Positions 11,470-26,132 are shown, counted from the first letter of the stretch. The stretch is 32,000 nucleotides of DNA from Coprobacillaceae bacterium (GCA_963675515.1 OY776328.1:240001-272000), one strand, 5' to 3'. Numbers and translations: made by a program. Notes: generated by a model not told the origin, from the letters alone.

Positions 11470-13377
11470 ATGAATTATAATGCAATAGCTAAAGAAATCA
11501 TTGCTGGGGTGGGCGGTAAGGAAAACATCAACCAGATATTTCATTGCGCAACTCGACTTAGAATCGTTGTAAAGGACAGCGGAAAAATCGACGACGGCAG
11601 AATTACCGATATTGATGAGGTTAAGGGGACCTTCAACAATAAAGGACAGTATCAGATCATTTTAGGTTCAGGAGTGGTCAACCTTGTCTGCGAAGAAGCG
11701 CTGAAAATCGCGGGTATAAGCAACAGTGAGACTGTGGCTGAAAAAAGTGACAAGCCTGAAGGAAACTTGCTGCAGCGTTTTGTGAACACTTTGAGTGATA
11801 TTTTTGTACCGATCATCCCGGCAATCGTTGCGGGCGGATTGTTGATGGGGATCAATAACCTTCTGACATCTCAGGGTCTTTTCTATCCGGGGATGAGTGT
11901 GATTGAGGCAAATCCAGGTCTTGGTGATATCGCCGGTTTTATCAATATGTGTGCCAATGCGCCTTTTGTATTCCTGCCGGTTTTGATTGGCTTCTCGGCA
12001 ACTAGAAAGTTTGGCGGCAATGCTTTCTTGGGGGCGGCATTGGGGATGCTGATGGTCCATCCGGACCTGCTCAATGCCTATAGTTACGGGGCAACCGGGG
12101 TTGAAGTTCCCACTTGGAATTTGTTTGGTCTGGGTGTCGAGGCTGTCGGTTATCAGGGGACAGTGCTGCCAGTACTGGCTTCTTCATGGATTCTGGCAAA
12201 TATTGAAAAGAGATTGCATAAGGTTACGCCAATATGGCTGGACAACCTGTCAACACCTTTGCTGTCAATTCTGGTTACAGGTCTTTTGACTTTTATCATT
12301 GTCGGACCAATCATGAGGGTTGCCGGTACGGGCTTGGCTGCAGGTATGACTTGGGTTTATGATTCTTTGGGATTTGTCGGCGGCGGGATCCTAGGTTTCT
12401 TCTATGCGCCACTGGTAATCACCGGAATGCATCACAGTTTCATCGCAATTGAAACAACATTGCTTGCCGATATCGCCAATACCGGCGGTTCATTCATCTT
12501 CCCGACTGCATCGGCTTCAAACGTGGCTCAAGGTGCGGCGGTTCTGGCGATCTTGTTATTGACCAGAGATGCAAAATTGAAATCAATTTGTTCGGCTTCA
12601 GGCGTTTCCGCATTGCTGGGGATCACTGAACCCGCTATGTTCGGGGTCACTTTGAAGCTCAAATATCCATTCATCGGATCTTGTATCGGTGCTGCTGCAG
12701 GATCGGCTTTTATGGCGGCGACTAAAACCAAAGCGATCGCCTTGGGTGCGGCCGGGTTGCCAGGATTCATCTCATTCCCGGTTGATTCCCAAATTCCTTT
12801 CTGGATCGGTATCGCCATCGCCTTTGTTGTATCATTTGGAACCACATTCGTGCTTCACAATTATAATGAGAAGAAGACGTCACAAGCCAAGATGGCTTCG
12901 GCTTCGACAGCTTCCAATCAGGTTCTTGTAAATACGACCATAGAATCGCCGATTGCCGGTAAAGTTTTGCCGATGGAGCAAAGCAGCGATCAGGTATTCT
13001 CAAATAAGACTCTTGGAGACGGATTTGTCGTGATGCCAGATGACGGGAATCTGACTTCACCAATCAATGGGAAAATCAGCTTCATCTATCCGACCAGGCA
13101 TGCAATAGGACTGATTGATGACAACGGTCTGGAGATCCTGATTCATATCGGTATCGATACGGTGGCCCTTGAGGGAAAACCGTTTGAATCATTTGTGAAA
13201 ACGGATGACGTTGTAACAGCGGGACAGCCGCTGATGAAAATCGATCTTGATGCCATCAAGTCGGCAGGGTTATCGGACGAAGTTATCGTTGTCGTTACAT
13301 CAAAGACACCGTTCATATCCAGAACGAATATCAAAGGAGAATTGAATGAAACAATCCTTGAACTCTCAAACGCTTAG
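11470..13377 (+). CDS. scrA: PTS sucrose-specific EIIBCA component
   Basis: EIIB CATRLR motif, a multi-TM EIIC core, and a C-terminal glucose-type EIIA (GDGFVVMP...HIGIDTVALEGKPF). The ATG at 11470 follows GGAGGAG. Confidence 0.9.
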   Translation: MNYNAIAKEIIAGVGGKENINQIFHCATRLRIVVKDSGKIDDGRITDIDEVKGTFNNKGQYQIILGSGVVNLVCEEALKIAGISNSETVAEKSDKPEGNLLQRFVNTLSDIFVPIIPAIVAGGLLMGINNLLTSQGLFYPGMSVIEANPGLGDIAGFINMCANAPFVFLPVLIGFSATRKFGGNAFLGAALGMLMVHPDLLNAYSYGATGVEVPTWNLFGLGVEAVGYQGTVLPVLASSWILANIEKRLHKVTPIWLDNLSTPLLSILVTGLLTFIIVGPIMRVAGTGLAAGMTWVYDSLGFVGGGILGFFYAPLVITGMHHSFIAIETTLLADIANTGGSFIFPTASASNVAQGAAVLAILLLTRDAKLKSICSASGVSALLGITEPAMFGVTLKLKYPFIGSCIGAAAGSAFMAATKTKAIALGAAGLPGFISFPVDSQIPFWIGIAIAFVVSFGTTFVLHNYNEKKTSQAKMASASTASNQVLVNTTIESPIAGKVLPMEQSSDQVFSNKTLGDGFVVMPDDGNLTSPINGKISFIYPTRHAIGLIDDNGLEILIHIGIDTVALEGKPFESFVKTDDVVTAGQPLMKIDLDAIKSAGLSDEVIVVVTSKTPFISRTNIKGELNETILELSNA

Positions 13378-14689
13378 ACTACCAGAAGACCAAACGGCAT
13401 TGAAGTACCATTTGATGCCGCCGATGGGCTGGCTCAATGATCCTAACGGACTGTGCCGCTTCAATGGAGTCTTGCATATATTCTTCCAGCATAGCTTCGA
13501 TCCCAAGGGTGGATTGAAGCAGTGGGGACATTACACAACTTCTGATTATATCAACTACAGGCTTCATCCTATAGCCCTGACTCCAGACTGCGTATACGAC
13601 AGGGATGGAGTGTATTCGGGCAGCGCAATCGTTGCTGGCAATAAAATGCATCTTTTTTACACCGGCAATGTCAAGTATGACGGAGACCATGACAGAATCC
13701 TTAGTGGCCGGGACAGCAACGTTGTTCATGTGACAAGTGATGACGGATTCGGATTTTCGGCCAAAGAGCTGGTCCTGACCAATGATGATTATCCGCAAAC
13801 TCTGACCCGCCATGTGCGTGACCCTAAAATATTCGTCAAAAATAATGTTTACTACATGGTTCTTGGGGCGCGGACAAAGGAGGATATCGGGGAGGTCATT
13901 TTCTTCGAATCGTCCGACCTTCGTGATTGGAAATATTCCTATAGTCTGACTTCGAAGGAACGGATAGGCTACATGTGGGAGTGCCCAGACTACATCAATC
14001 TTGATGGTCAGGAGTTTTTGTTATGCTGTCCTCAAGGTGTGGAAACGCAAAATGACAGATTCCAACCCCTTTACAATAATGGCTATTTCAAGGTTGTTGA
14101 TCGGCAATTGTCGGACTTTGTCGAGCTGGATATCGGATTTGATTACTATGCCACCCAGACATTTCAAGACAACGGCAAAGTTATTGCAATCGGGTGGATG
14201 GGAATGCCTGATGTCGACTATTCCAATGTCAATGATGACAAGTGGCAGCACTGTCTTGCTATTCCGCGGGAATTGGTCCTGGAAAACGGCGTGGTGTTCC
14301 AAAAGCCGATCGAGCAGCTGCAAAATCTCCGAGGCAAATATTTCAAAGGGAAAAATATTGGTCTCGACAACAACAGTTTCGAGCTGATTTTGAATGAGAT
14401 CGAAGGGGATCTGCATCTGAAACTTCGTGATGATGTGATTATAAGTTACGAAAATAAACTGTTGAAGTTGGACATGGGTAATTCGGGTATGGGCCGGACG
14501 TCCCGGATCTTGGAGCTGCCGGAACTTACCGGATTGCATATTTTCTCTGATGTCTCTTCATTGGAGGTATTTGTCAACGATGGATTTAAAACAATCACCA
14601 CTAGGGTATATAATGATAATTGCCAGATAGAAAGCAACTGTGAATTCGAAGGGTACACTCTTAACGGATTCAATATTGAGGCAGACTAA
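13346..14689 (+). CDS. scrB: Sucrose-6-phosphate hydrolase (GH32)
   Basis: GH32 motifs: WLNDPNG, a VRDPK-type RDP motif, and MWECPD. 447 aa. Overlaps the scrA 3' end. Confidence 0.9.
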   Translation: MKQSLNSQTLRLPEDQTALKYHLMPPMGWLNDPNGLCRFNGVLHIFFQHSFDPKGGLKQWGHYTTSDYINYRLHPIALTPDCVYDRDGVYSGSAIVAGNKMHLFYTGNVKYDGDHDRILSGRDSNVVHVTSDDGFGFSAKELVLTNDDYPQTLTRHVRDPKIFVKNNVYYMVLGARTKEDIGEVIFFESSDLRDWKYSYSLTSKERIGYMWECPDYINLDGQEFLLCCPQGVETQNDRFQPLYNNGYFKVVDRQLSDFVELDIGFDYYATQTFQDNGKVIAIGWMGMPDVDYSNVNDDKWQHCLAIPRELVLENGVVFQKPIEQLQNLRGKYFKGKNIGLDNNSFELILNEIEGDLHLKLRDDVIISYENKLLKLDMGNSGMGRTSRILELPELTGLHIFSDVSSLEVFVNDGFKTITTRVYNDNCQIESNCEFEGYTLNGFNIEAD

Positions 14690-14731
14690 AAACCTGCAGC
14701 TTGGGAACAATTCTCAAAGCTGCAGGTTTTT
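14688..14731. terminator. Intrinsic terminator of scrB (probably bidirectional in the ancestral locus)
   Basis: A5, then the 9-bp stem CCTGCAGCT / AGCTGCAGG, then T6. Confidence 0.8.
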
Positions 14732-16243
14732 TGTATGCCGGGCATGGCATATATCTAGGTGGTGAAAGTCCACTGTGGGGGTGACGTCGCAACTGCCAAC
14801 CACTAGCCAATATCAAGGGTGTCCATCGTGAGGTGGAATCTGAAAGAAGATGGAGGCAAAACCCTGGTCCGAGGAACACGAATCACATCAGGCATGTAAT
14901 GGGGACGAGCGTGCAAAACAACGCAAAGTCATAAGAGGTTGCGGAATGATACTATTACATGTAAATGTGGCGGATATATGGGGTGAAATAGATATGACCT
15001 TATCCCGGGAGATCTTGCGAGGGAGCAATCCTAGTAACAACGAATCGCAAGAAGTCAGCAGACGTCGTAGTAGCGAAGAAGTGGCTGTAATGGTCATGGA
15101 GTGAAGGACTGAATAAATCTATCAGTTATTAAAATTAGGCTTGATTTCATCACGCGAAAACGCAAAGACAGTCGAACACACTAGTAAAGCCCGAAAGAAG
15201 AATGTAGGGAAAGTGAGCCTGATGAATAGCGAAAACAATGGAGGTAACGGAAATATGAAAACTGATAACGAATTACTGGAACAAATGCTTAGCCATACCA
15301 ATCTCAAACAAGCGTATGTACAAGTTAAACGAAACAAAGGTGCATGCGGAATTGATGGTATGGATGTCTACCAACTTAAGGGATATCTAGATGAACATCT
15401 GGATGAAATTAAGGCAAGCATAATGAACCGCACGTATAAACCACAACCGGTTAGGAGAGTGGAAATACCAAAAGCTGATGGTGGAACAAGAAATCTAGGA
15501 GTGCCTACAGTCATCGATAGATTCATTCAGCAAGCTATCGCCCAGGTATTAACACCAATCTATGAACCAATCTTCAGTGACAACAACTATGGTTTTAGAC
15601 CCAATAGATGTTGTGAAATGGCAGTTATCAAGGCATTGGAATACATGAACGAAGGATTCCAATGGGTCGTGGATATTGACTTGGAGAAGTTTTTCGACAA
15701 TATCAACCACGATAAACTTATTACATTGGTGATGAAGGATGTAAAGAGCGGTGAGATTGTATCGCTTATTAGAAAATTCCTGGTAAGTGGAATTATGATT
15801 GACGATGAATATAAGGAATCTATAGTCGGTACTATGCAAGGTGGTCCGTTAAGTCCACTACTATCCAATATATTTCTTAATGAATTGGACAAGGAAATGG
15901 AAGCTAGGGGGTTACACTATACACGTTATGCCGATGACTGTATGATTTTCGTTGGGAGTAGCAAAGCAGCTGACAGAGTCATGGCATCAATAAGCAAATT
16001 CATCGAAACCAAGCTAGGCCTGAAAGTCAATATGACCAAAAGCAAAGTTGCAAAACCCAACGACATAAAGTATTTGGGATTTGGATTCTACTATGATACT
16101 TTCAACCAGCTTTGGAAAGCAAAACCGCATGCCAAATCAATAAAGACACTTAAAGAAAAATTGAAGGAATTGACTAATCGAAGTTGGTCAATTCCCTGGG
16201 ATTATAGATGCTTAAAGATACGGCAACTAATAGTCGGGTGGAT

Positions 16244-16251
16244 AAACTACT
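16244..16251. repeat. 8-bp target-site duplication of the IS256-family element (left copy)
   Basis: AAACTACT at 16244-16251 is repeated at 17619-17626. Confidence 0.8.
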
Positions 16252-17618
16252 GATAGTGTAAAATATTTTGTGTAAATAGGATTTCAACTTTTAAGTAGAA
16301 AAAAGGGTGCAACCCTTGTAAAATTAGTTCGACGAAAACAATTTACGAGAGGATTACACCCATGAACTATTTTACAACAACTTTACTTAGAAGTCTAATA
16401 TCAAATGATAATAATCTGCCAGCTTTTGAGCAAGTAGTCTCAGAACTTTTCCGGAGCGAATTGGAGAATGCCATCAACGATATTTTGAAGTCCGAACTTA
16501 CCGTTTTTCTTGATTATGAGAAATATGACCGATCTGAGAATTCGAATTCAAGAAATGGCTATTACAACCGCGATTACAACACTAAATATGGTGTGTTGAA
16601 CCTGCGCATACCACGTGACCGTCAAGGGGACTTTGATTCACCGCTGGTCCCTAAATATCAGCGAAACGATCTAGCTACCACCAACACTGTCATCGATCTA
16701 TTTAATTCAGGGATGACCAACAGCGACATTGTAAAAACTGTTGAATCAATCTACGGCAAGAAATACTCCAGACAGACAGTTTCCAATATTACTAAGGAAA
16801 TAGTTGCCCATGTTGAAGCCTTTAAAAATCGCCCGTTAAACAAGCAATACGCAGTTGTTTATACCGACGCTACAGTTATTCCTTTGCGGCGCGATACCGT
16901 GTCTAAAGAGGCGGTTCATATCGCTATAGGAGTGACTCTAGAGGGAACAAAGGAAATACTAGGATATTCAATTGCGCCAACCGAATCCGCAACAACATGG
17001 CGGGAACTGTTTGAAGAGTTCAAAACACGCGGTTTGGAAGCGGTTGCGTTATTCTGTACTGACGGGCTAACCGGTGTTGAGAACGCCATTGAAGACACTT
17101 TTCCGATGGCCAAAATCCAACGTTGCCTGGTGCATGTTTCAAGAAACATTACAGCCAAAGCAAGAGTGAAAGACCGTAGTGAGATTGCACAGGATTTTAA
17201 GCGAGTTTACAATTGCGAAACTGAAAAAGCGGCGAGTGAAGAGCTTAAGGAGTTCATCACCAAATGGGGGCAAAAATACCCAAAAGTGGCAAAATCACTT
17301 GAAGAGAATTCAAATCTATTCACTTTCTATTTGTTCCCTGAATCGGTACGCAAGAGCATATATACAACAAACCTGATCGAAGGTTTCAATAAACAGCTCA
17401 AGCGGAAAATCAAGGCTAAAGAACAATTCCCAAATGAGGAAGCTGTGGAGAAATACATCGTTTCGCAATTTGAACAATATAACCAAAAATTCATGAACCA
17501 TACCCATAAGGGATTCAAAGGAATATCTTACGAACGTTGGTTCCTGCTAGAAGAAGAATAACCAAGATGATCAGTAAGAACTAATTTTACAAATTTACAC
17601 AAAAATATTGACACTACC
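16252..17618 (+). mobile_element. IS256-family insertion sequence (1367 bp)
   Basis: Imperfect 26-bp terminal IRs: GATAGTGTAAAATATTTTGTGTAAAT versus the reverse complement GGTAGTGTCAATATTTTTGTGTAAAT (21/26 match). Single transposase ORF. 8-bp TSD. Confidence 0.85.
16362..17561 (+). CDS. IS256-family (mutator-type) transposase
   Basis: 399 aa. Typical IS256 pattern: RNGYYNRDYNTKYGVLNLRIPRDRQG, and a DDE triad in the contexts YTDAT, CTDGL, NLIEGFN. Confidence 0.92.
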   Translation: MNYFTTTLLRSLISNDNNLPAFEQVVSELFRSELENAINDILKSELTVFLDYEKYDRSENSNSRNGYYNRDYNTKYGVLNLRIPRDRQGDFDSPLVPKYQRNDLATTNTVIDLFNSGMTNSDIVKTVESIYGKKYSRQTVSNITKEIVAHVEAFKNRPLNKQYAVVYTDATVIPLRRDTVSKEAVHIAIGVTLEGTKEILGYSIAPTESATTWRELFEEFKTRGLEAVALFCTDGLTGVENAIEDTFPMAKIQRCLVHVSRNITAKARVKDRSEIAQDFKRVYNCETEKAASEELKEFITKWGQKYPKVAKSLEENSNLFTFYLFPESVRKSIYTTNLIEGFNKQLKRKIKAKEQFPNEEAVEKYIVSQFEQYNQKFMNHTHKGFKGISYERWFLLEEE

Positions 17619-17626
17619 AAACTACT
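17619..17626. repeat. 8-bp target-site duplication of the IS256-family element (right copy)
   Basis: AAACTACT, identical to 16244-16251. Confidence 0.8.
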
Positions 17627-17862
17627 ATAAAATAGGTAACTTCAAAGGTACGTGCGAAAACCTCGACGGGTGGATTAGATTTAGAATAAGAATGTATCTC
17701 TGGAAGAAATGGAAAACCATTAAGAACAGGAGAAAACAACTTAGAAAACTTGGAGCAAAACGATGGCAATATGAATCATGGTCAAACTCTAGGAAATCAT
17801 ACGCCCGGTGTGCTAGCACATTTCTTAAGACAAGGGTCACAAACGAGTTACTCAAAAGAAAA

Positions 17863-17887
17863 GGCCTAGTATCACTACTAGACCAAT
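17863..17887. repeat. Long (22-25 bp) target duplication of the IS1634-like element (left copy)
   Basis: GGCCTAGTATCACTACTAGACCAAT is repeated exactly at 19910-19934. The last 3 nt are ambiguous between the IS end and the duplication. Confidence 0.85.
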
Positions 17888-18077
17888 GGAGTCAACTTTA
17901 GGAACTTTTTCCTAGTTAGCTCTTTTTATATCTATATGCATCTTAAATATAAATCTCTGACGCTTAATTCAAGTTTAGTTTAAATCTTCACATGAAAAAA
18001 AGCGCATAATCCCCCATAGAATTTTAGCGTTTTTTTAAAATTGCGATATTCATGTTATAATGATAGTGTATTCTTGA

Positions 18078-19616
18078 CTACGGGGCAACTGTTCTCATGA
18101 CGCCTTTGATGGTTTGAATTTTTGGATAGTTTCGCCCATCAAGCGAGAATCGGTAGTAGAATCCACTAGGAACTACTCTGCCCCAACGTTGACTGTGCCT
18201 GTTCTTGCGGACGGGCACTTTTATTGTTTGGGCTACGGCAACTATTTGCTTAATCCTTTTTCGCATCAGTGTTTTCTTATGACTGTAAAACGGATACAGC
18301 AGGTTGTTCTCCATCAGCAGATTATGTAGTTGTTTGATGTTGACCCGGTACTGGATATTATCTTCATCATTTTTATCGGAGGTTTCTTCACGATTAGGCC
18401 GGCGGCGGTGCTTGCCCGGGTGCCTGCTAAGATACCTGTCGATTTCTTTCCTGATCACTCCCAAGATATTGTAAAGCACGATTTTGCCATAGATGCAGCA
18501 TTGGGATACGGTGTCGGATTCGCTAACGTGTCGTTCCAGTTCCATATCGGTTTTTAGCGTTTTATATGCCACCTCAATATTCCAACGCTTTGAATAGAGC
18601 TCGATGATATCCTCGTGGCTGAACTCTTCTTTTGACAAACTGGTAAAGTATGTTATATCTGATTCAATGGACTCCCCGAATTTATTACTGTATGCATAAG
18701 TAAATTTTACGACTCTTATCTTCACTTTGGGGTTATCTTCTCTGATTTTACGGGCTTCATCAGAGAACCGGAATCTTTTCCGCCATAGCCTGTCAACATC
18801 TACCTCGATCCACTCATCATTTGAAGTCATTTCACTGACTTGCTTTTTAAAGAAGTTGGATTTGGCACGGATGCAATAATCAAATCCTAAGTGCTCAAGA
18901 TGACTGATAAGCTCGACTGAGCCATAGTAGCGATCAGCAAGATAAATCACTTTCTTGCCAGCCAACAGATCCCCACAACTATAAAGGTGTTGGAAGGCAA
19001 GTGGAATTTCTGAGTAAGGGGCAGGTCTCATCATGAAATCCAAAAAGATGCCGTTGGTGACGTCATATAGTCCAGCTGATTTGGACAGAACTTTCTTAAC
19101 ATCGAAAATATCTTTGACGTACTGGTTTTTCCAAAAGCCGAAGTTATAAATATTGTGGATGCTATAGGGAATTTCTAGAAAGGTCCCATCTTCAGCTAAA
19201 AGCGTATACCCTTTATATGTCTTAGGCAGCTTGCTTTGATAGAACTCCTTGGCAAACTCTTTGAATAAATATCTGAATACTGATGGATTGAGTTTTTTGA
19301 TATCGACGTTAAGAGCTTGCTTGGTGATCCTTTTTTCCAAGCGGTCAGTGGAGCAGAAATACTTGGTCAAGTCCGTGTTAGTGTCCTTAGAATTTCTAAA
19401 AACAAAGTAGAGAATTACATCCCTGAAAGTCATAGTCCGATTGCGAGTAAAATTAGAACTAAAGTTCCTAGATAAATTACGAGTGATGTCAGAAGACAAG
19501 ACATCCGCGAAAGAATTGAAGAAATCTGTCATCTTATTAGTCTTAACTACATTATTCATCATCGTATACCAACCTTGGTTTCTTTTTAGCGAAAGCCGCT
19601 TTGAGGAAAGGAACAC
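18078..19616 (-). CDS. IS4/IS1634-family DDE transposase, main ORF (catalytic part)
   Basis: 512 aa. IS4 signature Y-x2-R-x3-E-x6-K in LYSKRWNIEVAYKTLK, plus YLADRYYGS. Confidence 0.85.
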   Translation of the reverse strand: MFLSSKRLSLKRNQGWYTMMNNVVKTNKMTDFFNSFADVLSSDITRNLSRNFSSNFTRNRTMTFRDVILYFVFRNSKDTNTDLTKYFCSTDRLEKRITKQALNVDIKKLNPSVFRYLFKEFAKEFYQSKLPKTYKGYTLLAEDGTFLEIPYSIHNIYNFGFWKNQYVKDIFDVKKVLSKSAGLYDVTNGIFLDFMMRPAPYSEIPLAFQHLYSCGDLLAGKKVIYLADRYYGSVELISHLEHLGFDYCIRAKSNFFKKQVSEMTSNDEWIEVDVDRLWRKRFRFSDEARKIREDNPKVKIRVVKFTYAYSNKFGESIESDITYFTSLSKEEFSHEDIIELYSKRWNIEVAYKTLKTDMELERHVSESDTVSQCCIYGKIVLYNILGVIRKEIDRYLSRHPGKHRRRPNREETSDKNDEDNIQYRVNIKQLHNLLMENNLLYPFYSHKKTLMRKRIKQIVAVAQTIKVPVRKNRHSQRWGRVVPSGFYYRFSLDGRNYPKIQTIKGVMRTVAP

Positions 19617-19749
19617 TTTCTCCGTCTACAAGACCGAAATTAATAAGAACGCGGTGTTTAGATACACCATTTTCACGATAAGACTCAACAAGTGCACAAA
19701 AATAGGTATTATCTTTACCTTTATTGTTCTTAACAGCTCTGACAAACAT
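19552..19749 (-). CDS. N-terminal segment of the IS1634-like transposase, in a different frame (frameshifted or two-ORF arrangement)
   Basis: The 65-aa ORF MFVRAVKNNKGKDNTYFCALVESYRENGVSKHRVLINFG... resembles the conserved N-terminus of IS1634-family transposases. It overlaps the main ORF by 65 nt, around an A-rich tract (GCTAAAAAGAAACC). Confidence 0.55.
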   Translation of the reverse strand: MFVRAVKNNKGKDNTYFCALVESYRENGVSKHRVLINFGLVDGESVPFLKAAFAKKKPRLVYDDE

Positions 19750-19909
19750 AATATCGCCTCTTTTCTTAACTACATTATATCACTATAATGGCTAAATATC
19801 AGCAAATATTACTTATAATCTTAACTACAAATTCAAATCAAATATCGAACAGTTGTCAAAAACATCAAAAAAAGAGCCGACTTAAGGAATTTCTTAAGTT
19901 GACTCCATT

Positions 19910-19934
19910 GGCCTAGTATCACTACTAGACCAAT
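19910..19934. repeat. Long target duplication of the IS1634-like element (right copy)
   Basis: Identical to 17863-17887. Confidence 0.85.
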
Positions 19935-19966
19935 ATCAGTTAAAACATATTTCAGTATAGATTTAA

Positions 19967-19998
19967 ACCGCCGTATGCCGGCCGGCTTGTACGGTGGT
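19967..19998 (+). ncRNA. Group II intron domain V (class C type)
   Basis: ACCGCCGUAU-GCC-GGCC-GGC-UU-GUACGGUGGU. This folds as a 10-bp lower helix, a 2-nt 3' bulge, a 3-bp upper helix and a tetraloop. CGC occupies the catalytic-triad position. Length is 32 nt. Confidence 0.8.
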
Positions 19999-19999
19999 G

Positions 20000-20019
20000 T
20001 TATCCCGATATCGGGATAA
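20000..20019. repeat. Perfect 20-bp palindrome at the left RIT/intron junction
   Basis: TTATCCCGATATCGGGATAA. It consists of two inverted copies of the 9-mer TTATCCCGA, which also recurs inside both RIT inverted repeats. Confidence 0.9.
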
Positions 20020-20023
20020 TCAA

Positions 20024-20107
20024 ACTTATACCGACTTTTGGATTATCCCGACAAATATGTATTTTTGAGGGATAGTCTCTTTTTGTATTATTAAAAGTCG
20101 GGATAAT
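20024..20107. repeat. RIT left terminal inverted repeat (84 bp)
   Basis: Matches the reverse complement of 23367-23450 at 79/84 positions by hand alignment. Confidence 0.9.
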
Positions 20108-20147
20108 TTTATTTTCAGTCTATAATGTAGTTAGGAGGTAGTTTGAA

Positions 20148-21377
20148 ATGAAAAATTTGAATAGTATCGACGAATTAGTTCAGCTTGCTTTAAATAACCT
20201 GAAGTCTCAAGGCTATAATGAACTTACCATTCAGGCCTACGAATCCAGCTACTTTAACCCCATTTTGAAAAGATATTCTGACTTAAACCAAATCAACTAT
20301 AGTCAAGAAATTATGGATTCACTGCTAAAGCTCTATCTTTCGCAACTTCAAAACAAAATTATTAGTAGGACCACCTATAATAAAAGAGTGCGTGGCGTCT
20401 TAATGATCACCGAACTTAATGATTTCGGTTCCTTCAAGTGGAAAGTTTTCACATTTAAGGATGAAATCCCTATATCATCAGGGTTCAAAATGACAATAAA
20501 AGAATATTTGAAAAATAGAGATGTATCTATTAGGACCCTTCAATTTGAAGAGCGAATCCTATATTTATTTTCAAATTTTCTAAACAATCATGATATTTTG
20601 CAACCGAAATTAATAAGTACTAGCGATATAGTGGAATTTATTAAAATCATCTCTAAGGATAACCCAAAATCCATGGATAGAATACTCACTTGTTTGAAAA
20701 AATATTTAGTTAATTTGTACAGAAATAAAAAGATTGATTTTGATATAAGCTCCATCGTTTCCTTTGGTAAAATACGAGACAGGGCATTATATCCGCCGAT
20801 AGATATGATTGATCTTGTAGGAATTTTAAATTCAATTGATAGGGAGACACCTACCGGAAAAAGAAATTATGCGATTATAATATTGGGTGCAATGACAGGG
20901 CTAAGAGCTGGAGATATAGTACGGATTCAGCTTGAAGATATTGATTGGAAAAAACGCAAATTAAATATAGTTCAGGGGAAAACAAATAGTCCCATATCAG
21001 TGCCATTAACTGAGAGTGTCTGTAATGCAATTGCGGACTACATTCTAAATGGAAGACCCAAAACAGATGATAATAGTATTTTTATAAGATCCATAGCTCC
21101 TTTTACGGGGCTTAAAGACGGCTGTTCTATCGCTTCTTTTTTTAGAAGGTATCTATTAAAGGCTGGAATTGAACCATCCCTTAAAACCGGGAACACTTTC
21201 CACTCTATTAGGCGGATGTTTGGGACTCAATTGATTATCAACGGTGTTCCGGTTACAATGATTGCCCAGCTTTTGGGTCACCAATCAGTCATACCTACTA
21301 AGCAATATATTTCACTTGATGTTGAGGGTTTGAGAAAGTGTGCGTTATCGATGGAAACACTTGATGGTAGATTATGA
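20148..21377 (+). CDS. ritA: Tyrosine recombinase, first of trio
   Basis: 409 aa. Catalytic residues in context: GLRAGD (R), GKTNS (K), HSIRR (H-x-x-R), GHQS (H), KQYISL (Y). Preceded by GGAGG. Confidence 0.8.
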   Translation: MKNLNSIDELVQLALNNLKSQGYNELTIQAYESSYFNPILKRYSDLNQINYSQEIMDSLLKLYLSQLQNKIISRTTYNKRVRGVLMITELNDFGSFKWKVFTFKDEIPISSGFKMTIKEYLKNRDVSIRTLQFEERILYLFSNFLNNHDILQPKLISTSDIVEFIKIISKDNPKSMDRILTCLKKYLVNLYRNKKIDFDISSIVSFGKIRDRALYPPIDMIDLVGILNSIDRETPTGKRNYAIIILGAMTGLRAGDIVRIQLEDIDWKKRKLNIVQGKTNSPISVPLTESVCNAIADYILNGRPKTDDNSIFIRSIAPFTGLKDGCSIASFFRRYLLKAGIEPSLKTGNTFHSIRRMFGTQLIINGVPVTMIAQLLGHQSVIPTKQYISLDVEGLRKCALSMETLDGRL

Positions 21378-22324
21378 AATTCATATATGAATATATCCCC
21401 GAAATGATTAATTATCGAATTGATTTAGGGTATTCGTTGCAACCAACTTCTTGGTATCTTAAAGATTTTTCCAGATACTTGAAGAAAAATTTTCCCAGTG
21501 AAACAATGCTTACTCAAGAAATGATCATGCCTTGGTGTGTGCAAAGGAAAACTGAGCAGGCGTGCAGTTTTCGATCTAGAATGTCATCAATAAGACAATT
21601 TACACTTTACCTTTTTGCGAACGGAGCTTCCAATTTTGTACTTGATTTGAATTTCTTACCTAAAATCACAAGATATGTACCCTATATATTTACAAACATG
21701 GAGCTTAAAACCATTTTTGAAATGGCTGATAGTAAAAAATATATCAAACCGATTACAGCTAAAAATAGAATCATATCTGTAATCTATCGATTGATATACT
21801 TTTGTGGTCTTCGGCCAAACGAAGGTCGTGAAATAATGAAAAAAGATTTGGACTTGGATAACGGAACTATACTTATTAGAAAAAACAAAAATCATAAGGA
21901 ACGTCTAATTCCAATGGCAGCTGATGTAACAGATATGATGCGCGAGTATATCGATGAAATGAAGTTAATATTTCCAAATACTGATTATGTTTTTCCATCT
22001 CCAACCGGGCTTCCATATCATTCAAAATGGTTAAGGACGGAATTCTTGAAGATTTGGGATGAGATAAAACCCGAGGGTGGTAGAGCTCGTGTAAGAGTAT
22101 ACGATTTACGTCATCGCTGGGCGACAACTGTCATGATGAAACTCTTAAACGATGGTGAAGATTTATATTCATTGCTTCCCTACATGAGTGCCTATATGGG
22201 TCATTCCAATTTCGAAGACACGGCTTATTATATTCACTTACTACCAGAGGAATTAATTAAATCATCTGAAGTTGATTGGGAAAGGTTTTCCTCAATCATT
22301 CCTGAGGTGTCTAAGTATGACTGA
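21374..22324 (+). CDS. ritB: Tyrosine recombinase, second of trio
   Basis: 316 aa. Catalytic contexts: GLRPNEG, LRHRW, GHSN, AYYIHL. ATGA start/stop overlap with the first gene. Confidence 0.8.
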   Translation: MKFIYEYIPEMINYRIDLGYSLQPTSWYLKDFSRYLKKNFPSETMLTQEMIMPWCVQRKTEQACSFRSRMSSIRQFTLYLFANGASNFVLDLNFLPKITRYVPYIFTNMELKTIFEMADSKKYIKPITAKNRIISVIYRLIYFCGLRPNEGREIMKKDLDLDNGTILIRKNKNHKERLIPMAADVTDMMREYIDEMKLIFPNTDYVFPSPTGLPYHSKWLRTEFLKIWDEIKPEGGRARVRVYDLRHRWATTVMMKLLNDGEDLYSLLPYMSAYMGHSNFEDTAYYIHLLPEELIKSSEVDWERFSSIIPEVSKYD

Positions 22325-23366
22325 AAATTCATTATGTTTCTTCAAAATGATTAGAGATTATTTTGAGTCTTTCTTACCAAAACAAAAAGGAAACAGCTTC
22401 AACACAATCAAATCCTATAAAATCACTATGAATCAATTTCTAAAACATGCATGTAGCGCCAATAAAATCAAACTATCTGAATTTTGCTTCGAGATGACCT
22501 CGGTTAAGCTGCTTGAGAATTTTTTGGATGACGGTGAGCAATATTCCGGGTGGTCCTGCAGTACTAGAAATCAGAAACTGGCAGCCATACGTTCGTTTTA
22601 CAAATATGTTGCCTCTCGTAATATTTCTTTAATGGCATATTACCAAGAACTACTTGCGGTCCCAATGAAAAAGATGTCCAAGAATAATCAGATTGAATAC
22701 TTCTCCGAAAATGTTTTAGAAACATTACTTAGGCAGCCAAACACAAAAACAAAAAAAGGAATACGGGATTTGGTTTTCATGATACTAATGTATGACACTG
22801 GAGCTAGAATTCAGGAAATTTTGGATCTCAAAATTGGAGACCTATTCCTATTTAGTGAAGTCCCGTACGTGAAACTAACTGGAAAGGGCAGTAAAGTAAG
22901 ATTAGTCCCAATTATGGAAAAAACGGTAAACCACTTGAAAAATTATCTATCGATATTTCACTTAAAATCAAAAGACGATAGCTTCGTTTTTTGTTCAAAA
23001 CGAAAGGAAATCATCAGTCAACTGTCGCCAGACGCTGTTCAAAAATTTATTGATAAATATTGTGCATCCGCTCATGATGTAGATGAAGAAGTACCTATTC
23101 ATATTTATCCGCATATGTTCCGCCATTCTAGAGCCATGCATTTATATCATGGTGGAATGCCGCTACCACTTATTTCCGAATGGCTTGGACACGCGCAAGT
23201 TTCTACAACAATGGAATTCTATGCGCAGCCAACATTAGAAATGAAAAAACAGGCAATTGAGCAGGCTACAGAAGCAATTAGCCCCTTAATAAATATTTCT
23301 AATAAATACAATCTGGATTTTGAAAATGATGAAGAACTGATCAAAAGGCTTTATGGATTGATATGA
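22317..23366 (+). CDS. ritC: Tyrosine recombinase, third of trio
   Basis: About 349 aa from the ATG at 22317, which overlaps the second gene by 8 nt. Catalytic contexts: TGARIQE, FRHSRA, GHAQVSTT, EFYAQ. Confidence 0.8.
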   Translation: MTENSLCFFKMIRDYFESFLPKQKGNSFNTIKSYKITMNQFLKHACSANKIKLSEFCFEMTSVKLLENFLDDGEQYSGWSCSTRNQKLAAIRSFYKYVASRNISLMAYYQELLAVPMKKMSKNNQIEYFSENVLETLLRQPNTKTKKGIRDLVFMILMYDTGARIQEILDLKIGDLFLFSEVPYVKLTGKGSKVRLVPIMEKTVNHLKNYLSIFHLKSKDDSFVFCSKRKEIISQLSPDAVQKFIDKYCASAHDVDEEVPIHIYPHMFRHSRAMHLYHGGMPLPLISEWLGHAQVSTTMEFYAQPTLEMKKQAIEQATEAISPLINISNKYNLDFENDEELIKRLYGLI

Positions 23367-23450
23367 GTTATCCCGACTTTTAATAATCCAAAAAAGGACT
23401 ATCCCTCAAAAATACATAATTGTCGGGATAATCCAAAAGTCGGTATAAGT
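23367..23450. repeat. RIT right terminal inverted repeat (84 bp)
   Basis: Reverse complement of 20024-20107, with 5 mismatches. Confidence 0.9.
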
Positions 23451-23455
23451 GGTGT

Positions 23456-23503
23456 GAGAGGTCGAAAATAAATAGGGAAACTATTTATTTTCTCCTACTC
23501 GAT
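23456..23503 (+). ncRNA. Putative group II intron domain VI and 3' end
   Basis: The helix is GAGAGG..G-AAAAUAAAUAG-GGAAA-CUAUUUAUUUU-C.CCU-A-CUC. An unpaired A at 23497 is the 7th nucleotide from a terminal ...GAU (AY) at 23503. Confidence 0.55.
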
Positions 23504-24234
23504 TAATGTCCATTTGAATTTTGGCCCGAACCGACTTGGCCCCCGGAACCTTGGGCGTTTTGGTTTGAATTGGTGTTTTCGCCACCGTTGTCTGTGTTTC
23601 CGTTCTGGCTGTTGTTGCCATTTTGATTCTGCTCCTGATTCTTGATTTGCATCTGGAGCTGGTTATATGACAGTTTGAAGCAGTCTTCAATGTCCGAATC
23701 AGGGTCGAGCTGGGCCAATCTCAAACATGCATGGTATTTGCCAAAGGTCATATTGTATTGATGGGCGATTTGGTAATTGTTCTGCTGGGCTTCGACGAAT
23801 CCGGTCAACGCACTGTCGATTTTGGCATTGTCGTTGAAGTAGACAACAGTTATTGTCACCGGATTGCCAACTTTGGCTTGGAGATTTTCGATGACATCAA
23901 GATAATTGTCATGCAGATAATCATGTTCTCCTATGAGTGCTGTGCTGGAATCGTCATATCCCATGATTTTGATAACTTCGTTATTCGAATCAACTTCCAA
24001 TTCCACGGCCATATCTCCATCCAGGGACAATGCCATTACTGCCTGGGACTTGTTGAAATAGTTGAAAGATAAGAACACCGCGAGAAATATCGCCAGACTT
24101 GAAAGCACGGCTTTTGAAAAATATGGTATACGCCTTTTTTTTGTTGCCGGTCGATAAATATGGTTCAACGTCTGGTTTTTTAGCTCCGGCGATGCTTTTA
24201 TCCGATCAAAATCGGATTTAAATTTTTCATTCAT
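23503..24234 (-). CDS. Membrane anti-sigma factor (single TM) with an N/Q/G-rich C-terminal tail
   Basis: Short cytoplasmic N-terminus, a TM segment (AVLSSLAIFLAVFLSF), an extracytoplasmic domain, and the tail NQEQNQNGNNSQNGNTDNGGENTNSNQNAQGSGGQVGSGQNSNGH. Overlaps the 3' end of the ECF sigma gene. The second ATG (24234) has better SD spacing than 24243. Confidence 0.7.
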   Translation of the reverse strand: MNEKFKSDFDRIKASPELKNQTLNHIYRPATKKRRIPYFSKAVLSSLAIFLAVFLSFNYFNKSQAVMALSLDGDMAVELEVDSNNEVIKIMGYDDSSTALIGEHDYLHDNYLDVIENLQAKVGNPVTITVVYFNDNAKIDSALTGFVEAQQNNYQIAHQYNMTFGKYHACLRLAQLDPDSDIEDCFKLSYNQLQMQIKNQEQNQNGNNSQNGNTDNGGENTNSNQNAQGSGGQVGSGQNSNGH

Positions 24235-24706
24235 TAAAATCATCTCCTAGCTGTTTTTTCAATAATTCGCGGCCTCTTTTCAAGTCGCTGTAAATGCTGT
24301 TGGTTTTCCTGTTGAGGATCTTGGAAATCTGGTCGGCGGTGTAACCCTCATAATAGTGAAGGTAGATGGCCAACTTGTAATTCTTGGGCAACATCAGAAC
24401 CGCTGAAATAAGGTCGCTGTTGCCAAAATTTTCCTCGGTCTGGATGTCCCTTAGCTGGTCGATGTCCACCGTCTTTTTGAATATGTTTTTGAATGTGTTC
24501 TTGCATTCATTGATGGTGACTCTTATCAACCAGGCTTTTTCATGATCCAATGACTCAAAAGGAGTTTCACGAGTAGCGTATTTTAAGAAGACATTTTGAA
24601 ATACGTCCTGACAATCCGCATCGTTTTTCAAGTTCAAAATGCAGATTTTTTTTATCATGTCTCCGTATTGGTCAATCTTCATTCGACAGATATCTTCGCT
24701 AATCAT
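24227..24706 (-). CDS. ECF-type sigma-70 family RNA polymerase sigma factor
   Basis: 159 aa. Region 2 (DCQDVFQNVFLKY...AWLIRVTINECKN) and region 4 (YEGYTADQISKILNRKTNSIYSDLKRGRELL). Confidence 0.88.
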   Translation of the reverse strand: MISEDICRMKIDQYGDMIKKICILNLKNDADCQDVFQNVFLKYATRETPFESLDHEKAWLIRVTINECKNTFKNIFKKTVDIDQLRDIQTEENFGNSDLISAVLMLPKNYKLAIYLHYYEGYTADQISKILNRKTNSIYSDLKRGRELLKKQLGDDFNE

Positions 24707-24736: not shown

Positions 24737-25168
24737 TTATTGCTTACTATAATTATGCTCCGATTGTGATTGGTTTGCAAATGCATTCTCGTTGTCACAT
24801 TCGTTTTGGCATTCACCGTCATTGTCCTGAGTTTGGACTCTTTGACGGGTTTGAGCTTGGGTCTGTTCCTGATCCTGAGTTTGAACCTCTGCTTGTTCTT
24901 GAGACTGGGTCTGGTTTTGAACACAATTTCTATTTCTTGTTTGCGTTTGAACTTGTTCTTGGGTCTGGTCGCATGTACCGTCTCCTTGTGAGTTTTCTCC
25001 CACTAGATCACAAATACCATCTTCGTTTTCATCCACGAAGTTTGATGCCTGCAATATTGTCGCTTCACCTGAAGCGTTTTGGGCTACCGGACCTGCCTGG
25101 GCCATTACCGTAGTCGCACCTGAACCGAGCATTACCATTAAAACTGAACTGATTACAATGTTTTTCAT
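24737..25168 (-). CDS. Small secreted acidic Q/T-rich Cys-motif protein, copy 1 (co-transcribed with the sigma/anti-sigma genes)
   Basis: Signal peptide MKNIVISSVLMVMLGSGATTVMAQA. The mature part contains FVDENEDGICD, GDGTCDQ and DNDGECQNECD. GGAGG SD. Only 30 nt and no terminator separate it from the sigma gene. Confidence 0.8.
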   Translation of the reverse strand: MKNIVISSVLMVMLGSGATTVMAQAGPVAQNASGEATILQASNFVDENEDGICDLVGENSQGDGTCDQTQEQVQTQTRNRNCVQNQTQSQEQAEVQTQDQEQTQAQTRQRVQTQDNDGECQNECDNENAFANQSQSEHNYSKQ

Positions 25169-25192
25169 TTTATATTCCTCCTGTTTTCACAA

Positions 25193-25224
25193 CTAATACA
25201 ATTGAAAGTTGGAAATCCTTGCAA
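25193..25224 (-). promoter_or_regulatory. Conserved promoter-like bipartite motif upstream of copy 1 (candidate ECF-dependent promoter)
   Basis: Minus strand: TTGCAAGGATTTCC, 10 nt, TGTATTAG. Both blocks are identical in all three copies; the spacer differs in this copy. Confidence 0.45.
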
Positions 25225-25464
25225 CTTTTTTTGTTTTTTCAAATAATATTGCAAAACTTAATTAACCGTAAAATACATATTAGTTCGATATTTGGTTATT
25301 GTCACTTTTGAAAAACTACCAAACATTGGCTTTTTGGGTGTAAGTAATATTTCTACGGTACCAAAAATAAACTCCAAGATGCATATGGTGGCTAATTAAG
25401 TTACAAAACGGACAATACAGTTTATCGTGAACTATCGAATAGGGGCCATTTCCTTTTCGCAACA

Positions 25465-25488
25465 GAAAAAGCGCAAATATTGCGCTTT
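25465..25488 (-). terminator. Intrinsic terminator after copy 2
   Basis: Minus strand: GCGCAA-TAT-TTGCGC followed by TTTTTCT. Confidence 0.7.
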
Positions 25489-25511
25489 CAGGGTTCATAT
25501 GGTCCCTTATA

Positions 25512-25940: not shown

Positions 25941-25964
25941 TTTATATTCCTCCTGTTTTCACAA

Positions 25965-25996
25965 CTAATACAACTTCAACCCGGAAATCCTTGCAA
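25965..25996 (-). promoter_or_regulatory. Conserved promoter-like bipartite motif upstream of copy 2
   Basis: TTGCAAGGATTTCC, 10 nt (GGGTTGAAGT), TGTATTAG. Confidence 0.45.
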
Positions 25997-26085
25997 CTAT
26001 TTTTATTTTTTTCAAATTTTATTACAAAACGGACAATGCAGTTTATCGAGAACTATCGAATAGGGGCCATTTCCTTTTCGCAATA

Positions 26086-26109: not shown

Positions 26110-26132
26110 CAGGGTTCATATGGTCCCTTATA

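Follow-up and report, generated by a model that had tools for sequence, protein, structure and literature searches.

A group IIC intron downstream of scrB is interrupted by three DNA elements, one of which probably targets the junction between domains V and VI

The locus described here raises two questions: what makes up the DNA between a sucrose-6-phosphate hydrolase gene (scrB) and the convergent gene beyond it, and how the elements found there came to lie where they do. The window, the whole stretch of DNA that was analysed, is 32,000 nucleotides long and comes from a Coprobacillaceae bacterium. A reading made earlier from the sequence alone had proposed that a class C group II intron lies behind the scrB terminator and was expanded by three mobile elements. 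Both proposals held: the intron RT matches group IIC proteins and the RNA features agree, and the inserts are an IS256, an IS4-like and a RIT-like element. The intron proper extends over 14733-23503 on the plus strand, directly after the T-run of the scrB terminator, and measures 8.77 kb with its inserts. That the locus is an interrupted group IIC intron is almost certain. It contains the following features.

13346-14689, plus strand: scrB (sucrose-6-phosphate hydrolase, GH32), host gene upstream of the intron, by Pfam and NCBIfam
14688-14732, plus strand: intrinsic terminator of scrB, with A5, stem 14693-14702/14717-14726 and T6 at 14727-14732
14733-16251, plus strand: intron segment 1, with the 5' end GUAUG, domains I-III, the start of domain IV and RT codons 1-332
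16252-17618, plus strand: IS256-family element, 1367 bp, by NCBIfam, Pfam and inverted repeats
17627-17883, plus strand: intron segment 2, with RT codons about 333-418 (maturase/X domain)
17884-19910, minus strand: putative IS4-family element, 2027 bp, by NCBIfam, its ends by comparison with the L120 relative
19931-20000, plus strand: intron segment 3, with the last RT codons, domain V and the J5/6 GU at 19999-20000
20001-23449, plus strand: RIT-like element, 3449 bp, with three tyrosine recombinases and inverted repeats
23456-23503, plus strand: domain VI and intron 3' end (...CUCGAU), by the consensus D5-D6 fold
23503-24243, minus strand: 246-aa protein, convergent, downstream of the intron, anti-sigma by position only
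24227-24706, minus strand: ECF-type sigma-70 factor, by Pfam Sigma70_r2/r4_2

The scrB product matched the Pfam Glyco_hydro_32N/C families and NCBIfam scrB_fam (373 bits; cut-off 356). The scrB terminator was detected as an inverted repeat, and residues 14688-14732 have a folding energy of -26.2 kcal/mol (z = -7.8). Searches of Pfam and NCBIfam gave zero family matches for the 246-aa convergent protein; to call it an anti-sigma factor is reasonable, based solely on its place downstream of an ECF-type sigma gene. This convergent pair (23503-24706) is syntenic with L004-L013. Ten related Erysipelotrichaceae contigs have scrB, the hairpin, T6, AATG and the anti-sigma stop without the intron. To either side of this site the contigs keep the order of the window (about 79% identical), and there was no counterpart of the 8.77-kb intron region anywhere in them. 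In this empty site, which the equivalent hairpin fills, the A-run/hairpin/T-run adjoins the stop codon of the convergent gene, the arrangement that had been predicted for the locus without its intron.

The intron's 5' end, GTATGCCGGGCATGG, is at 14733 and adjoins T6. The sequence-only reading had rightly put the intron immediately after T6; its start at 14688 includes the terminator. Segment 1 contains the EBS1 loop AAAA (14915-14918) and the RT start ATG (15255), and the first 400 nt of the intron are 96.5% identical to intact copies. The RT frame continues in segment 2 (...GWINY/YKIGNF...), which is identical to the intact paralog P0133, and ends at the stop codon in segment 3 (19958-19960). 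Domain V (D5) was confirmed at 19967-19998 and was aligned to D5 of 40+ relatives. Counting the closing A-U pair it is 32 nt long, against a canonical 34 nt, and it has the CGC triad and an upper helix of 3 bp. Its bulge is UU where AC is usual, and UU is also found in two other natural introns. Domain VI (D6) likewise lies where it had been placed, and the unpaired A 7 nt before the terminal AU is the bulged branch point at 23497. We obtained a D5-D6 consensus fold from 19 sequences, with 29 pairs of which 11 have compensatory changes, and the window fits it. Exon base +1, the putative IBS3, is the T at 23504, and the same intron 3' end followed by T is present in 14 relatives.

Taking out the three inserts, as had been done before, leaves a repaired intron of 1894 nt. 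The length given earlier, 1895, differs by a 1-nt ambiguity that exists because a T comes after the intron, and the insert boundaries were refined to 16252-17618, 17884-19910 and 20001-23449. The repaired intron is colinear end to end (1-1894) with intact copies from a related genome, at 82.7% identity. Its RT reads through in frame and has 427 aa with YADD; only RVT_1 (residues 71-277) and GIIM (296-374) were found in it by Pfam, and no endonuclease domain was detected in that search, all as had been described. It is 100% identical (427/427 aa) to the uninterrupted RT P0133 of the same genome. A check against Rfam, also suggested earlier, succeeded in the native window for domains I-IV, where group-II-D1D4-3 (RF02001) scored 122.7 bits (E = 5e-25; gathering score 32) and D1D4-1 (RF01998) 44.5 bits (gathering score 35), at 14822-15109. 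The D5-D6 model RF00029 gave zero matches in the native window because D5 and D6 are split by an insert. It did match an intact relative (L001:7290-7367; 45.7 bits, gathering score 40), in an alignment with two gaps in the D5 upper helix/loop, of three consensus positions and of one.

The closest solved RT is that of the E. rectale IIC intron (7UIM; E = 9e-166). Other solved matches on the IIC side were the 5HHJ and 5HHL RT-domain chains (1.5e-132 and 5e-129) and GsI-IIC (5e-112), and the matches to LtrA (IIA; 1e-42) and T.el4h (IIB; 1e-38) were weaker. These E-values strongly favour class C, an assignment that draws on RNA features and on the best matches among solved structures rather than on a formal IEP phylogeny. 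Class C introns insert downstream of intrinsic terminator motifs, a stem-loop followed by T's (PMC1702495, PMC4424553). We found the 5' end after a hairpin and T-run in the window copy and in all 18 of the 18 relatives with a mapped 5' end, and the +1 exon base was T in 14/14 relatives with a mapped 3' end. Group IIC introns are marked by a short EBS1-IBS1 pairing and by EBS3-IBS3, without EBS2-IBS2. In most lineages here, exon positions -4 to -1 change together with the EBS1 loop of 4 nt (EBS1/IBS1 pairs AAAA/TTTT, CAAA/TTTG, TAAA/TTTA, AGAA/TTCT, ATAA/TTAT and ATGA/TCAT); in L043 and L091 just 2/4 positions pair with the exon. Judged from these sequences, the scrB terminator is the homing site of the intron, with TTTT at 14729-14732 as the putative IBS1. 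The EBS1 AAAA would have directed insertion by its match to the last four T's of the terminator tail, at a site followed by T, the base found there in every relative examined. Pairing and site preference were observed directly, and we infer the event itself, the insertion of the intron directly 3' of the scrB terminator. The group IIC (class C) retroelement is multicopy, and the intron at this locus is one of its copies. Searches for uninterrupted copies and for an empty junction had been advised, and both were found, the copies in the same genome (the P0133 RT gene) and in a related genome. Apart from its RIT insertion, the intron is ordinary.

Two of the inserts lie in the RT gene. The IS256 transposase (16362-17561) scored 387 bits with NCBIfam transpos_IS256 (NF033543; cut-off 150) and E = 2e-115 with Pfam Transposase_mut. 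The element has terminal inverted repeats of about 26-27 nt and is flanked by the 8-bp target duplication AAACTACT (16244-16251 and 17619-17626); duplications in the IS256 family are typically 8-9 bp. The IS4-like element has the ends CAATGG...CCATTG in common with the L120 relative. Its transposase (minus strand, 18078-19616; called product 494 aa) scored 157 bits with NCBIfam transpos_IS4_1 (NF033592; cut-off 115). The flanking 20-bp target duplication GCCTAGTATCACTACTAGAC (17864-17883 and 19911-19930) forms an imperfect hairpin, within flanks whose maximal direct repeat is 25 bp. The IS4 family usually makes target duplications of about 9-13 bp, and the palindromic 20 bp here is longer. The L120 relative has a 14-bp duplication and sits at the centre of a terminator hairpin, and on these two cases only, the IS4-like element may be target-selective for palindromes.

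The third and largest insert, the RIT-like element, lies in the linker between domains V and VI and has TGGTGT on both sides, at 19995-20000 (the crossover/duplicated hexamer) and 23450-23455. It is composed as follows.

20001-20018: 18-nt palindrome TATCCCGATATCGGGATA
20019-20024: hexamer ATCAAA
20025-20106: left inverted repeat
20148-21377, plus strand: ritA, 409 aa, Phage_integrase (Pfam)
21374-22324, plus strand: ritB, 316 aa, Phage_integrase (Pfam)
22317-23366, plus strand: ritC, 349 aa, ATG at 22317, Phage_integrase (Pfam)
23368-23449: right inverted repeat

RIT elements have three adjacent, short-overlapping tyrosine recombinase genes, ritA-ritB-ritC, each of its own subfamily (PMC3414803), with two core-binding domains in RitA and an extra C-terminal helix in RitC (PMC8138268). 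In the window, ritA and ritB overlap by 4 bp and ritB and ritC by 8 bp, and the inverted repeats (83 nt) are 95% complementary. The best BLASTP partners in the pHG1 trio were A for A (2e-49), B for B (5e-44) and C for C (1e-61). By eye, the C-terminal parts have candidates for the catalytic R...HxxR...Y signature: HSIRR...GH...QY, LRHRW...GH...YY and FRHSR...GH...FY. There were additional ritA/ritB copies in the same genome, and a near-identical copy of the element is present at another locus (L094).

The three inserts appear to be unrelated and independent DNA elements that arrived after the intron, and recently, as the sequence-only reading had also held; the recent date is supported because the repaired RT equals its intact paralog in the same genome. 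The RT gene is now in three pieces and domains V and VI are 3.45 kb apart, so this copy should neither splice nor move and is predicted to be dead in both respects. That the 8.8-kb structure is instead an artefact, repeats wrongly joined during assembly of a genome from a metagenome, is extremely improbable: the source, a single 2.88-Mb contig, does appear to be metagenome-derived and all four elements are repeats, but matched target duplications or hexamers flank each insert on both sides, removal of the inserts restores an open frame and nucleotide-level colinearity with intact copies, both outer flanks are syntenic with relatives, and a chimeric join would not give such precise junctions three times.

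The RIT targeting is the interesting part of the locus. We sampled metagenome contigs picked from six RitC protein clusters, 47-96% identical to the RitC of the window and associated with several intron lineages. Some contigs agree at one flank but not at the other, which means that a number of left/right pairs are chimeric or rearranged, and RIT flanks were therefore counted singly. Fourteen of the 16 distinct outer junctions fell at the same D5/D6 position in diverse group II introns. These comprised 8 distinct junctions of the form IR/6-mer/D6 and 6 of the form IR/6-mer/palindrome/6-mer/D5, with the rit genes in both orientations and with 6-bp donor-type footprints. Rfam D1-D4 matches were found beside the RITs in L102, L103, L109, L112 and L127, and one RIT-bearing intron has an AGC-type D5 and an RT only 36% identical to that of the window. 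In L103 the D6-side TTCTGT is able to pair with the D5 5' strand of the intron found there, and the D5-side TGGTGT is not. L106 contains IRR/TGGTGT/palindrome/ACACCA/IRL, a circle or tandem joint. Two of the 16 junctions were elsewhere: L113 is without an intron motif, and L109/L110 adjoin a different intron in its 5' region. The end architecture is shared by more distant RITs (L096, 43% RitB identity), which have no evident intron target. In L109, the single case of a second RIT lineage, an intron RT gene is split at the PQGG-coding motif, which hints that the intron-targeting habit may be broader.

From this census, it is likely that the RIT clade integrates site-specifically at D5/D6 of group II introns. 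It had earlier been suggested that the intron may act as a neutral landing pad. On such an account, random insertions would be kept since the intron is dispensable, and those in neighbouring genes purged. The intron is dispensable, to judge from the empty site in relatives and the intact paralog elsewhere in the genome, the IS256 insertion has no evident target motif beyond its ordinary 8-bp duplication, and all three insertions lie inside 1.9 kb, between flanking genes that are intact. However, selection based on neutrality cannot give the nucleotide-precise recurrence of RITs of six clusters at one inter-domain position in unrelated introns, so this account fails for the RIT element; the IS4-like relative in L120 is also in a palindrome. 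For the locus as a whole we regard it as improbable.

A still less probable alternative is that the RIT is cargo and that the association arises from retrotransposing RIT-bearing introns rather than from any choice of introns by the RIT. Both RITs and introns are multicopy in these genomes, and RIT contigs often stop where the element does, as a repeat nested in a repeat would lead one to expect. Yet a 3.4-kb separation of D5 and D6 should abolish splicing, the window intron is present without interruption elsewhere in its genome and in relatives, and the same RIT clade occurs, with the rit genes in both orientations, in introns with different D5 types whose RTs share only 36% identity. The foreign D5-side hexamer in L103 suggests that the element came from an intron of another type, and L106 contains a free joint of the two RIT ends.

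The best explanation of the whole, and in our judgement a very likely one, is a IIC intron behind a terminator, three later inserts and a site-specific RIT. After the intron, the IS256 and IS4-like elements would have entered the RT gene and the RIT-like element the D5/D6 linker. The RIT target would be 6 bp, consisting of the last bases of the domain V 3' strand and J5/6 (...RCGG/N6/RRGRGG...). The element may move via a circular form with the joint IRR-hexamer-palindrome-hexamer'-IRL, in which a crossover on either side of the palindrome would give either orientation of the rit genes and always leave the palindrome next to domain V. The flanking hexamers would then be coupling sequences brought along from previous sites, in the manner of Tn554 and SE elements. 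Both flanking hexamers of the window RIT are TGGTGT, which fits this model only if TGGTGT was present at the donor site as well. We put the chances of these circle and coupling-sequence details at about even.

We lean slightly towards a broader view, in which a clade of Firmicute RIT elements are dedicated parasites of group II introns, with attachment at the D5 edge and J5/6, either orientation, a circular form and 6-bp footprints. In the literature searched, tests of target specificity and of movement are listed as lacking for RITs generally (PMC10214605, Table 1), and how they are mobilised is described as still to be deduced (PMC5737581). If true, this view would give RIT elements their first defined target and att-site architecture, and would make them a case of a DNA transposon specialised on a retroelement.

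The intron resembles other group IIC introns, B.h.I1 of Bacillus halodurans and the E. rectale intron (PDB 7UIM/7UIN), in its size of about 1.9 kb, its short domain V, an RT and maturase without an endonuclease domain, its site after a terminator hairpin, the short EBS1-IBS1 pairing and the T at +1. Its GUAUG 5' end and UU D5 bulge are minor variants common to some relatives. Unlike intact members of the group, the window copy carries three interruptions and is presumably inert.

The RIT-like element shares with the RIT archetype (Cupriavidus metallidurans CH34, C. necator pHG1) the gene order A (about 410 aa), B (about 320) and C (about 340), long terminal inverted repeats and multiple copies within a genome. 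It differs from the pHG1 RIT in its Firmicute host, with only 27-34% identity, and from the archetype in the 18-nt palindrome with hexamers at one end and in the defined, recurrent target of its clade inside group II introns. Tn554/SE-type transposons are alike in site-specific transposition by multiple tyrosine recombinases, and they carry a 6-bp donor-flank sequence into the new site (PMC10214605), which matches the mismatched L103 hexamers and the 'fossil' ATCAAA in the window copy. No counterpart of TnpC/Srap or Tfp was found in the RIT-like element and its proteins differ from those of Tn554/SE, as do the end architecture and the target, which is an RNA-gene motif in a mobile element and not an att site of the chromosome. 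In twintrons and IS-interrupted introns, too, one selfish element is nested in another, with the host intron disabled or altered. Twintrons are introns within introns that arise via retrohoming, whereas the invaders here are DNA transposons, one of which, the RIT, appears to use the most conserved sequence of the intron as its attachment site.

The group IIC intron behind the scrB terminator (14733-23503, plus strand) is split by an IS256 element, an IS4-like element and a RIT-like (recombinase-in-trio) element. The intron alone is an ordinary, routine and well-understood element of a known type, and insertion behind terminators and endonuclease-less reverse transcriptases (RTs) are textbook properties of IIC introns (PMC4424553, PMC1702495). 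The main value of the locus is the third insert, not the intron.

Features of the intron locus
13346-14689: scrB, GH32 (NCBIfam scrB_fam), ending in TAA
14688-14732: scrB terminator, A5, 10+5-bp hairpin and T6, folding at -26.2 kcal/mol (z = -7.8)
from 14733: intron 5' start, GTATGCCGGGCATGG, at the base directly 3' of the T-run
14822-15109, plus: Rfam group-II-D1D4-3, 122.7 bits, E = 5e-25
14822-15109, plus: Rfam D1D4-1, 44.5 bits
15141-16253: RT fragment, first ORF
16252-17618: IS256 element, 26-27-nt terminal inverted repeats, 8-bp duplication AAACTACT
16362-17561: IS256 transposase
17608-17901: RT fragment, second ORF
18078-19616, minus: IS4-family transposase
20001-23449: RIT-like element, three consecutive tyrosine recombinase genes at 20148-23366
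23503-24243: convergent 246-aa gene without known family, downstream of the intron
24227-24706: ECF-type sigma factor gene, downstream of the intron

We repaired the intron by deleting 16252-17626, 17888-19934 and 20001-23455, the cuts given in an earlier sequence-only reading. The repaired element is 1894 nt long and has a single 427-aa ORF with YADD and the Pfam domains RVT_1 and GIIM; Pfam detected no endonuclease domain in this product. Positions 1-1894 aligned end to end, at 82.7% identity, with intact copies in the Coprobacillaceae MAG OY780959.1, which carries at least 10 full-length copies of this sister intron and one truncated copy (L014-L021, L038, L042, L048). The repaired RT is identical at 427/427 residues to P0133, the product of an uninterrupted gene on the same 2,881,239-bp contig as the truncated RT, scrB and sigma factor genes, and the junction residues (...GWINY/YKIGNF... 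and ...SLLDQ/YQLKHISV) are therefore exactly right. The absence of any amino acid change in the disrupted copy relative to P0133 supports the view that all three insertions are recent. Each sister copy in OY780959.1 lies behind a different terminator, with TTG or GTG at exon positions -3 to -1; together these copies offer natural material for deriving the target rules of IIC introns.

The empty site was found in 10 Erysipelotrichaceae contigs (L004-L013, e.g. GCA_028698185.1). These have a sigma factor gene, a 241-aa gene and convergent scrB with a gap of only 45 bp, reading TAAAAAAG-hairpin-TTTTTTAATG. Colinearity with the window extends for >6.6 kb on the left side and >5 kb on the right side (~79% identity), and nowhere in these contigs was there a match to the 8.77-kb intron region. 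This synteny without the insert demonstrates an empty site in which the A-run, hairpin and T-run abut the convergent stop codon, as had been proposed from the window alone, and we infer that the hairpin serves as a bidirectional terminator. A consensus terminator scan did not pick up the scrB hairpin, because its rule requires loops of 3-8 nt; the hairpin is visible by folding. With the uninterrupted copies and the empty junction that the sequence-only reading had suggested looking for both in hand, its restored reading frame is borne out, its observation is confirmed almost to the nucleotide, and its main interpretation, a IIC intron with three recent nested inserts, holds.

Elsewhere in the window, a ~300-nt repeat occurs three times at 24762-26460 (78-95% identical, spacing 772 and 627 nt), overlapping small Q/T-rich ORFs with signal-peptide-like starts (e.g. 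24737-25168, minus) upstream of the sigma factor gene; relatives have a single 133-aa gene there (L004, 9569-9970). A T-box leader (10030-10225, minus, 128 bits) and a cobalamin riboswitch (6859-7048, minus, 66 bits) are unconnected with the intron.

The 3' end of the ribozyme was examined by covariation. Aligning the repaired window with 18 diverse relatives gave a consensus for domains V and VI with 29 pairs, of which 11 show compensatory changes. Domain V is 32 nt long, with a 10-bp lower helix that includes CGC/GUG at the triad position, a 2-nt bulge and a 3-bp upper helix; in domain VI, an A is bulged 7 nt before the 3' end. This shape is adopted by the repaired window (-39 kcal/mol, z = -6.1), and the domains V and VI originally described from the sequence are upheld. 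In the Rfam search also proposed at that time, domains I-IV matched in the window and an intact relative matched RF00029 (domains V-VI) at 45.7 bits (gathering score 40), the match stopping exactly at ...CUCGAU, but RF00029 found nothing in the native window at a cut-off of E <= 10. The latter is due to the 3.45 kb separating domains V and VI and is not counter-evidence to the intron. The domain V bulge at 19988-19989 is UU, and most relatives have AC. Decay of domain V was rejected as an explanation, since the Actinomycetes MAG introns L087 and L088 carry the same bulge; AU is found in L081. Bulge identity seems to be tolerant in this lineage.

Among solved homologues, the RT was closest to the E. 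rectale IIC RT (7UIM; E = 9e-166), followed by the 5HHJ and 5HHL RT-domain chains (1.5e-132 and 5e-129) and the GsI-IIC RT (5e-112), with LtrA (IIA; 1e-42) and the T. elongatus IIB RT (1e-38) much further away. Taking solved homologues as a proxy for a class-labelled tree, the RT would belong to class C. A hairpin and T-run lie directly upstream in 18/18 relatives with a mapped 5' end, and a T directly follows the intron in 14/14 with a mapped 3' end. This after-terminator placement is the same as the known habit of class C introns (PMC1702495, PMC4424553). In addition, the four exon bases that precede GU(A/G)UG covary with a 4-nt loop aligned to window positions 14915-14918.

Loop and exon pairs
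AAAA/TTTT: window
CAAA/TTTG: Coprobacillaceae, L023, L047
TAAA/TTTA: L022
AGAA/TTCT: L024
ATAA/TTAT: L041
ATGA/TCAT: L051

The covariation identifies the loop as EBS1, which pairs with exon IBS1, and therefore fixes the 5' splice site between 14732 and 14733. Judged by this base pairing, the window intron's own guide matches the scrB T-run. A boundary shifted by one nucleotide (GTATG...CGATT, with T6 as in relatives) was rejected by the covariation at the 5' junction, and also because a T at +1 in all copies fits IBS3. The locus is a clean worked example: its site is also known empty, one paralog is intact and the splice site is fixed by EBS1/IBS1 covariation. The EBS1 loops of L043 (ATGA) and L091 (CTAA) match their exons (GCTT and CAAG) at 2/4 positions, compared to 3-4/4 in other lineages, and these copies may be ectopic insertions. 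The positions concerned in L043 are 3470-3480 and about 3660. L043, from a MAG with an empty scrB site, is the closest relative of the window intron (94% RT identity).

The longest direct repeat of the IS4-like insert is 25 nt. Comparison with a 44%-identical relative gave family ends of CAATGG...CCATTG; the element is therefore 17884-19910, and a 20-bp target was duplicated, the imperfect hairpin GCCTAGTATCACTACTAGAC (17864-17883 and 19911-19930). This relative (L120, transposase 1501-2934) sits in the middle of a terminator hairpin, where the 14-bp perfect palindrome GGCGCCATGGCGCC is duplicated, and adjoins the 5' end of another IIC intron. Duplications of 20 and 14 bp are unusually long, and palindromic, for IS4. 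These two cases suggest, short of proof, that the family targets palindromes or hairpins and duplicates the whole palindrome. Comparison of the element with plasmids (blastn) gave no match.

Known since 2009, RIT elements are found in many phyla. In the window copy, ritA, ritB and ritC encode products of 409, 316 and 349 aa; the overlap between ritA and ritB is 4 bp. Each product is closest to its own counterpart in the archetypal C. necator pHG1 trio (27%, 30% and 34% identity; E = 2e-49, 5e-44 and 1e-61). The terminal inverted repeats (IRs) are 83 nt long and 95% complementary. TGGTGT flanks the element at 19995-20000 and 23450-23455 and is present once in intact introns. A second copy (L094; 92-97% protein identity), with TTTGAT on both flanks, also lies between domains V and VI, in a different, opposite-strand intron whose RT is only 36% identical to that of the window and whose domain V is of the canonical AGC type.

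We sampled five further RitC clusters (47-58% identity) beyond the window and L094, six clusters of the clade in all, and counted every distinct sequence lying outside an IR end. The RIT contexts are all from metagenome contigs; since several of these agree at one flank only, flank pairs can be chimeric or rearranged.

Sequences outside RIT ends
IR-hexamer-domain VI...CUAC(U/C)CGAU: 8 cases (window, L094, L095, L103, L109/L117, L127-L134, L137, L146)
IR-hexamer-palindrome-hexamer-reverse complement of domain V: 6 cases (window, L094, L101/L102, L101/L103, L110 group, L112/L118)
IRR-TGGTGT-palindrome-ACACCA-IRL (circular form or tandem): 1 case (L106)
abutting the 5' region of an RF02005-type intron: 1 case (L109/L110)
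without intron motif: 1 case (L113)

Rfam domain I-IV matches lie beside the RITs in L102, L103, L109, L112 and L127. The reconstructed target is ...R-Y-G-Y-R-C-G-G, N6, R-R-G-R-G-G..., in which N6 is the end of the domain V 3' strand plus the J5/6 linker. The palindrome end always adjoins domain V, and the rit genes run in either direction. The intron had been suggested as a possible neutral landing pad for its inserts. This is not supported for the RIT, whose junctions recur between domains V and VI; judging from these junctions, site-specific integration at the domain V/VI junction should replace that view, at least for the RIT. A RitB-based metagenome scan recovered only 6 loci, the 28-nt RIT end had no exact match in the metagenome contigs scanned, and tblastn of RitA, RitB and RitC against 80 intron loci of reference genomes found no additional RITs.

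In L109/L110 (about 6128-6415), the right end of the first RIT reads AAG-TTCTGT-GAGGGTTGCGCC..., and an RF02005 (D1D4-6) match starts 45 nt on; the left flank of this RIT in L110 is domain V of another intron. Either domain V lies almost directly before a second intron's 5' end, an order that would be twintron-like or permuted, or the contig has undergone rearrangement. A RIT of another lineage (L109 7405-10619, minus; L110, L111, L114-L117; binding motif TTATGCAAAGTAA) splits an intron RT gene within the coding motif ...TPQGG/GVISP... (CCGCAGGGGGG/.../GGCGGGGTG). This single context suggests that another RIT clade also targets conserved intron sequence.

On one contig (L106, about 1754-2021), ritB-ritC-IRR is followed by TGGTGT, TATTTCGACTTCGTAATA, ACACCA and IRL-ritA. 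Ends joined via a palindrome are as expected of an excised circle or a head-to-tail tandem. The joint is symmetric (IRR-hexamer-palindrome-hexamer'-IRL) and would give two equivalent crossover sites, one on either side of the palindrome. If either site recombined with domain V-N6-domain VI, the two orientations seen would result, the palindrome staying beside domain V in both, and the hexamers would act as coupling sequences. In L103, the domain V-side hexamer is TGGTGT, yet the domain V 5' strand AGAGCCGUGU needs ...GGUUCU; the domain VI-side hexamer is the native TTCTGT. Read on the other strand, the inner hexamer of the window RIT, ATCAAA, is TTTGAT, which L094-type introns have as their hexamer; it looks like a record of earlier residence. 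The end layout is repeated in a distant RIT (L096; 43% RitB identity; binding motif TTATTCCGA), where 500-560 and 4030-4075 read CGCCTT-TATTCCGATGTCGGAATA-AAGGCG-IR...IR-CGCCTT, in which TATTCCGATGTCGGAATA is a palindrome. Its flanks contain no domain V or VI and no evident intron, so this end design may be general, with a target specific to the clade.

PMC3414803 describes RITs as trios with inverted repeats and says of their mobility that it 'remains to be experimentally demonstrated'; PMC10214605 (Table 1) lists both target specificity and movement as 'NT', and PMC5737581 could not establish the circular intermediates. A full-text search found no paper in which group II introns are connected with RITs or with trios of tyrosine recombinases, and an earlier mention is possible. 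A RIT lineage with a short, conserved and easily synthesised target (~40 bp, domain V-J5/6-domain VI) and a circle-type junction would make the mechanism directly testable. If the proposal is true, group II introns are inactivated by parasites of their own that act at the DNA level, and this bears on intron copy-number control in gut Firmicutes and on the annotation of 'degenerate' introns. In leaving such hexamers, RITs would resemble Tn554 and SE elements with their 6-bp footprints (PMC10214605).
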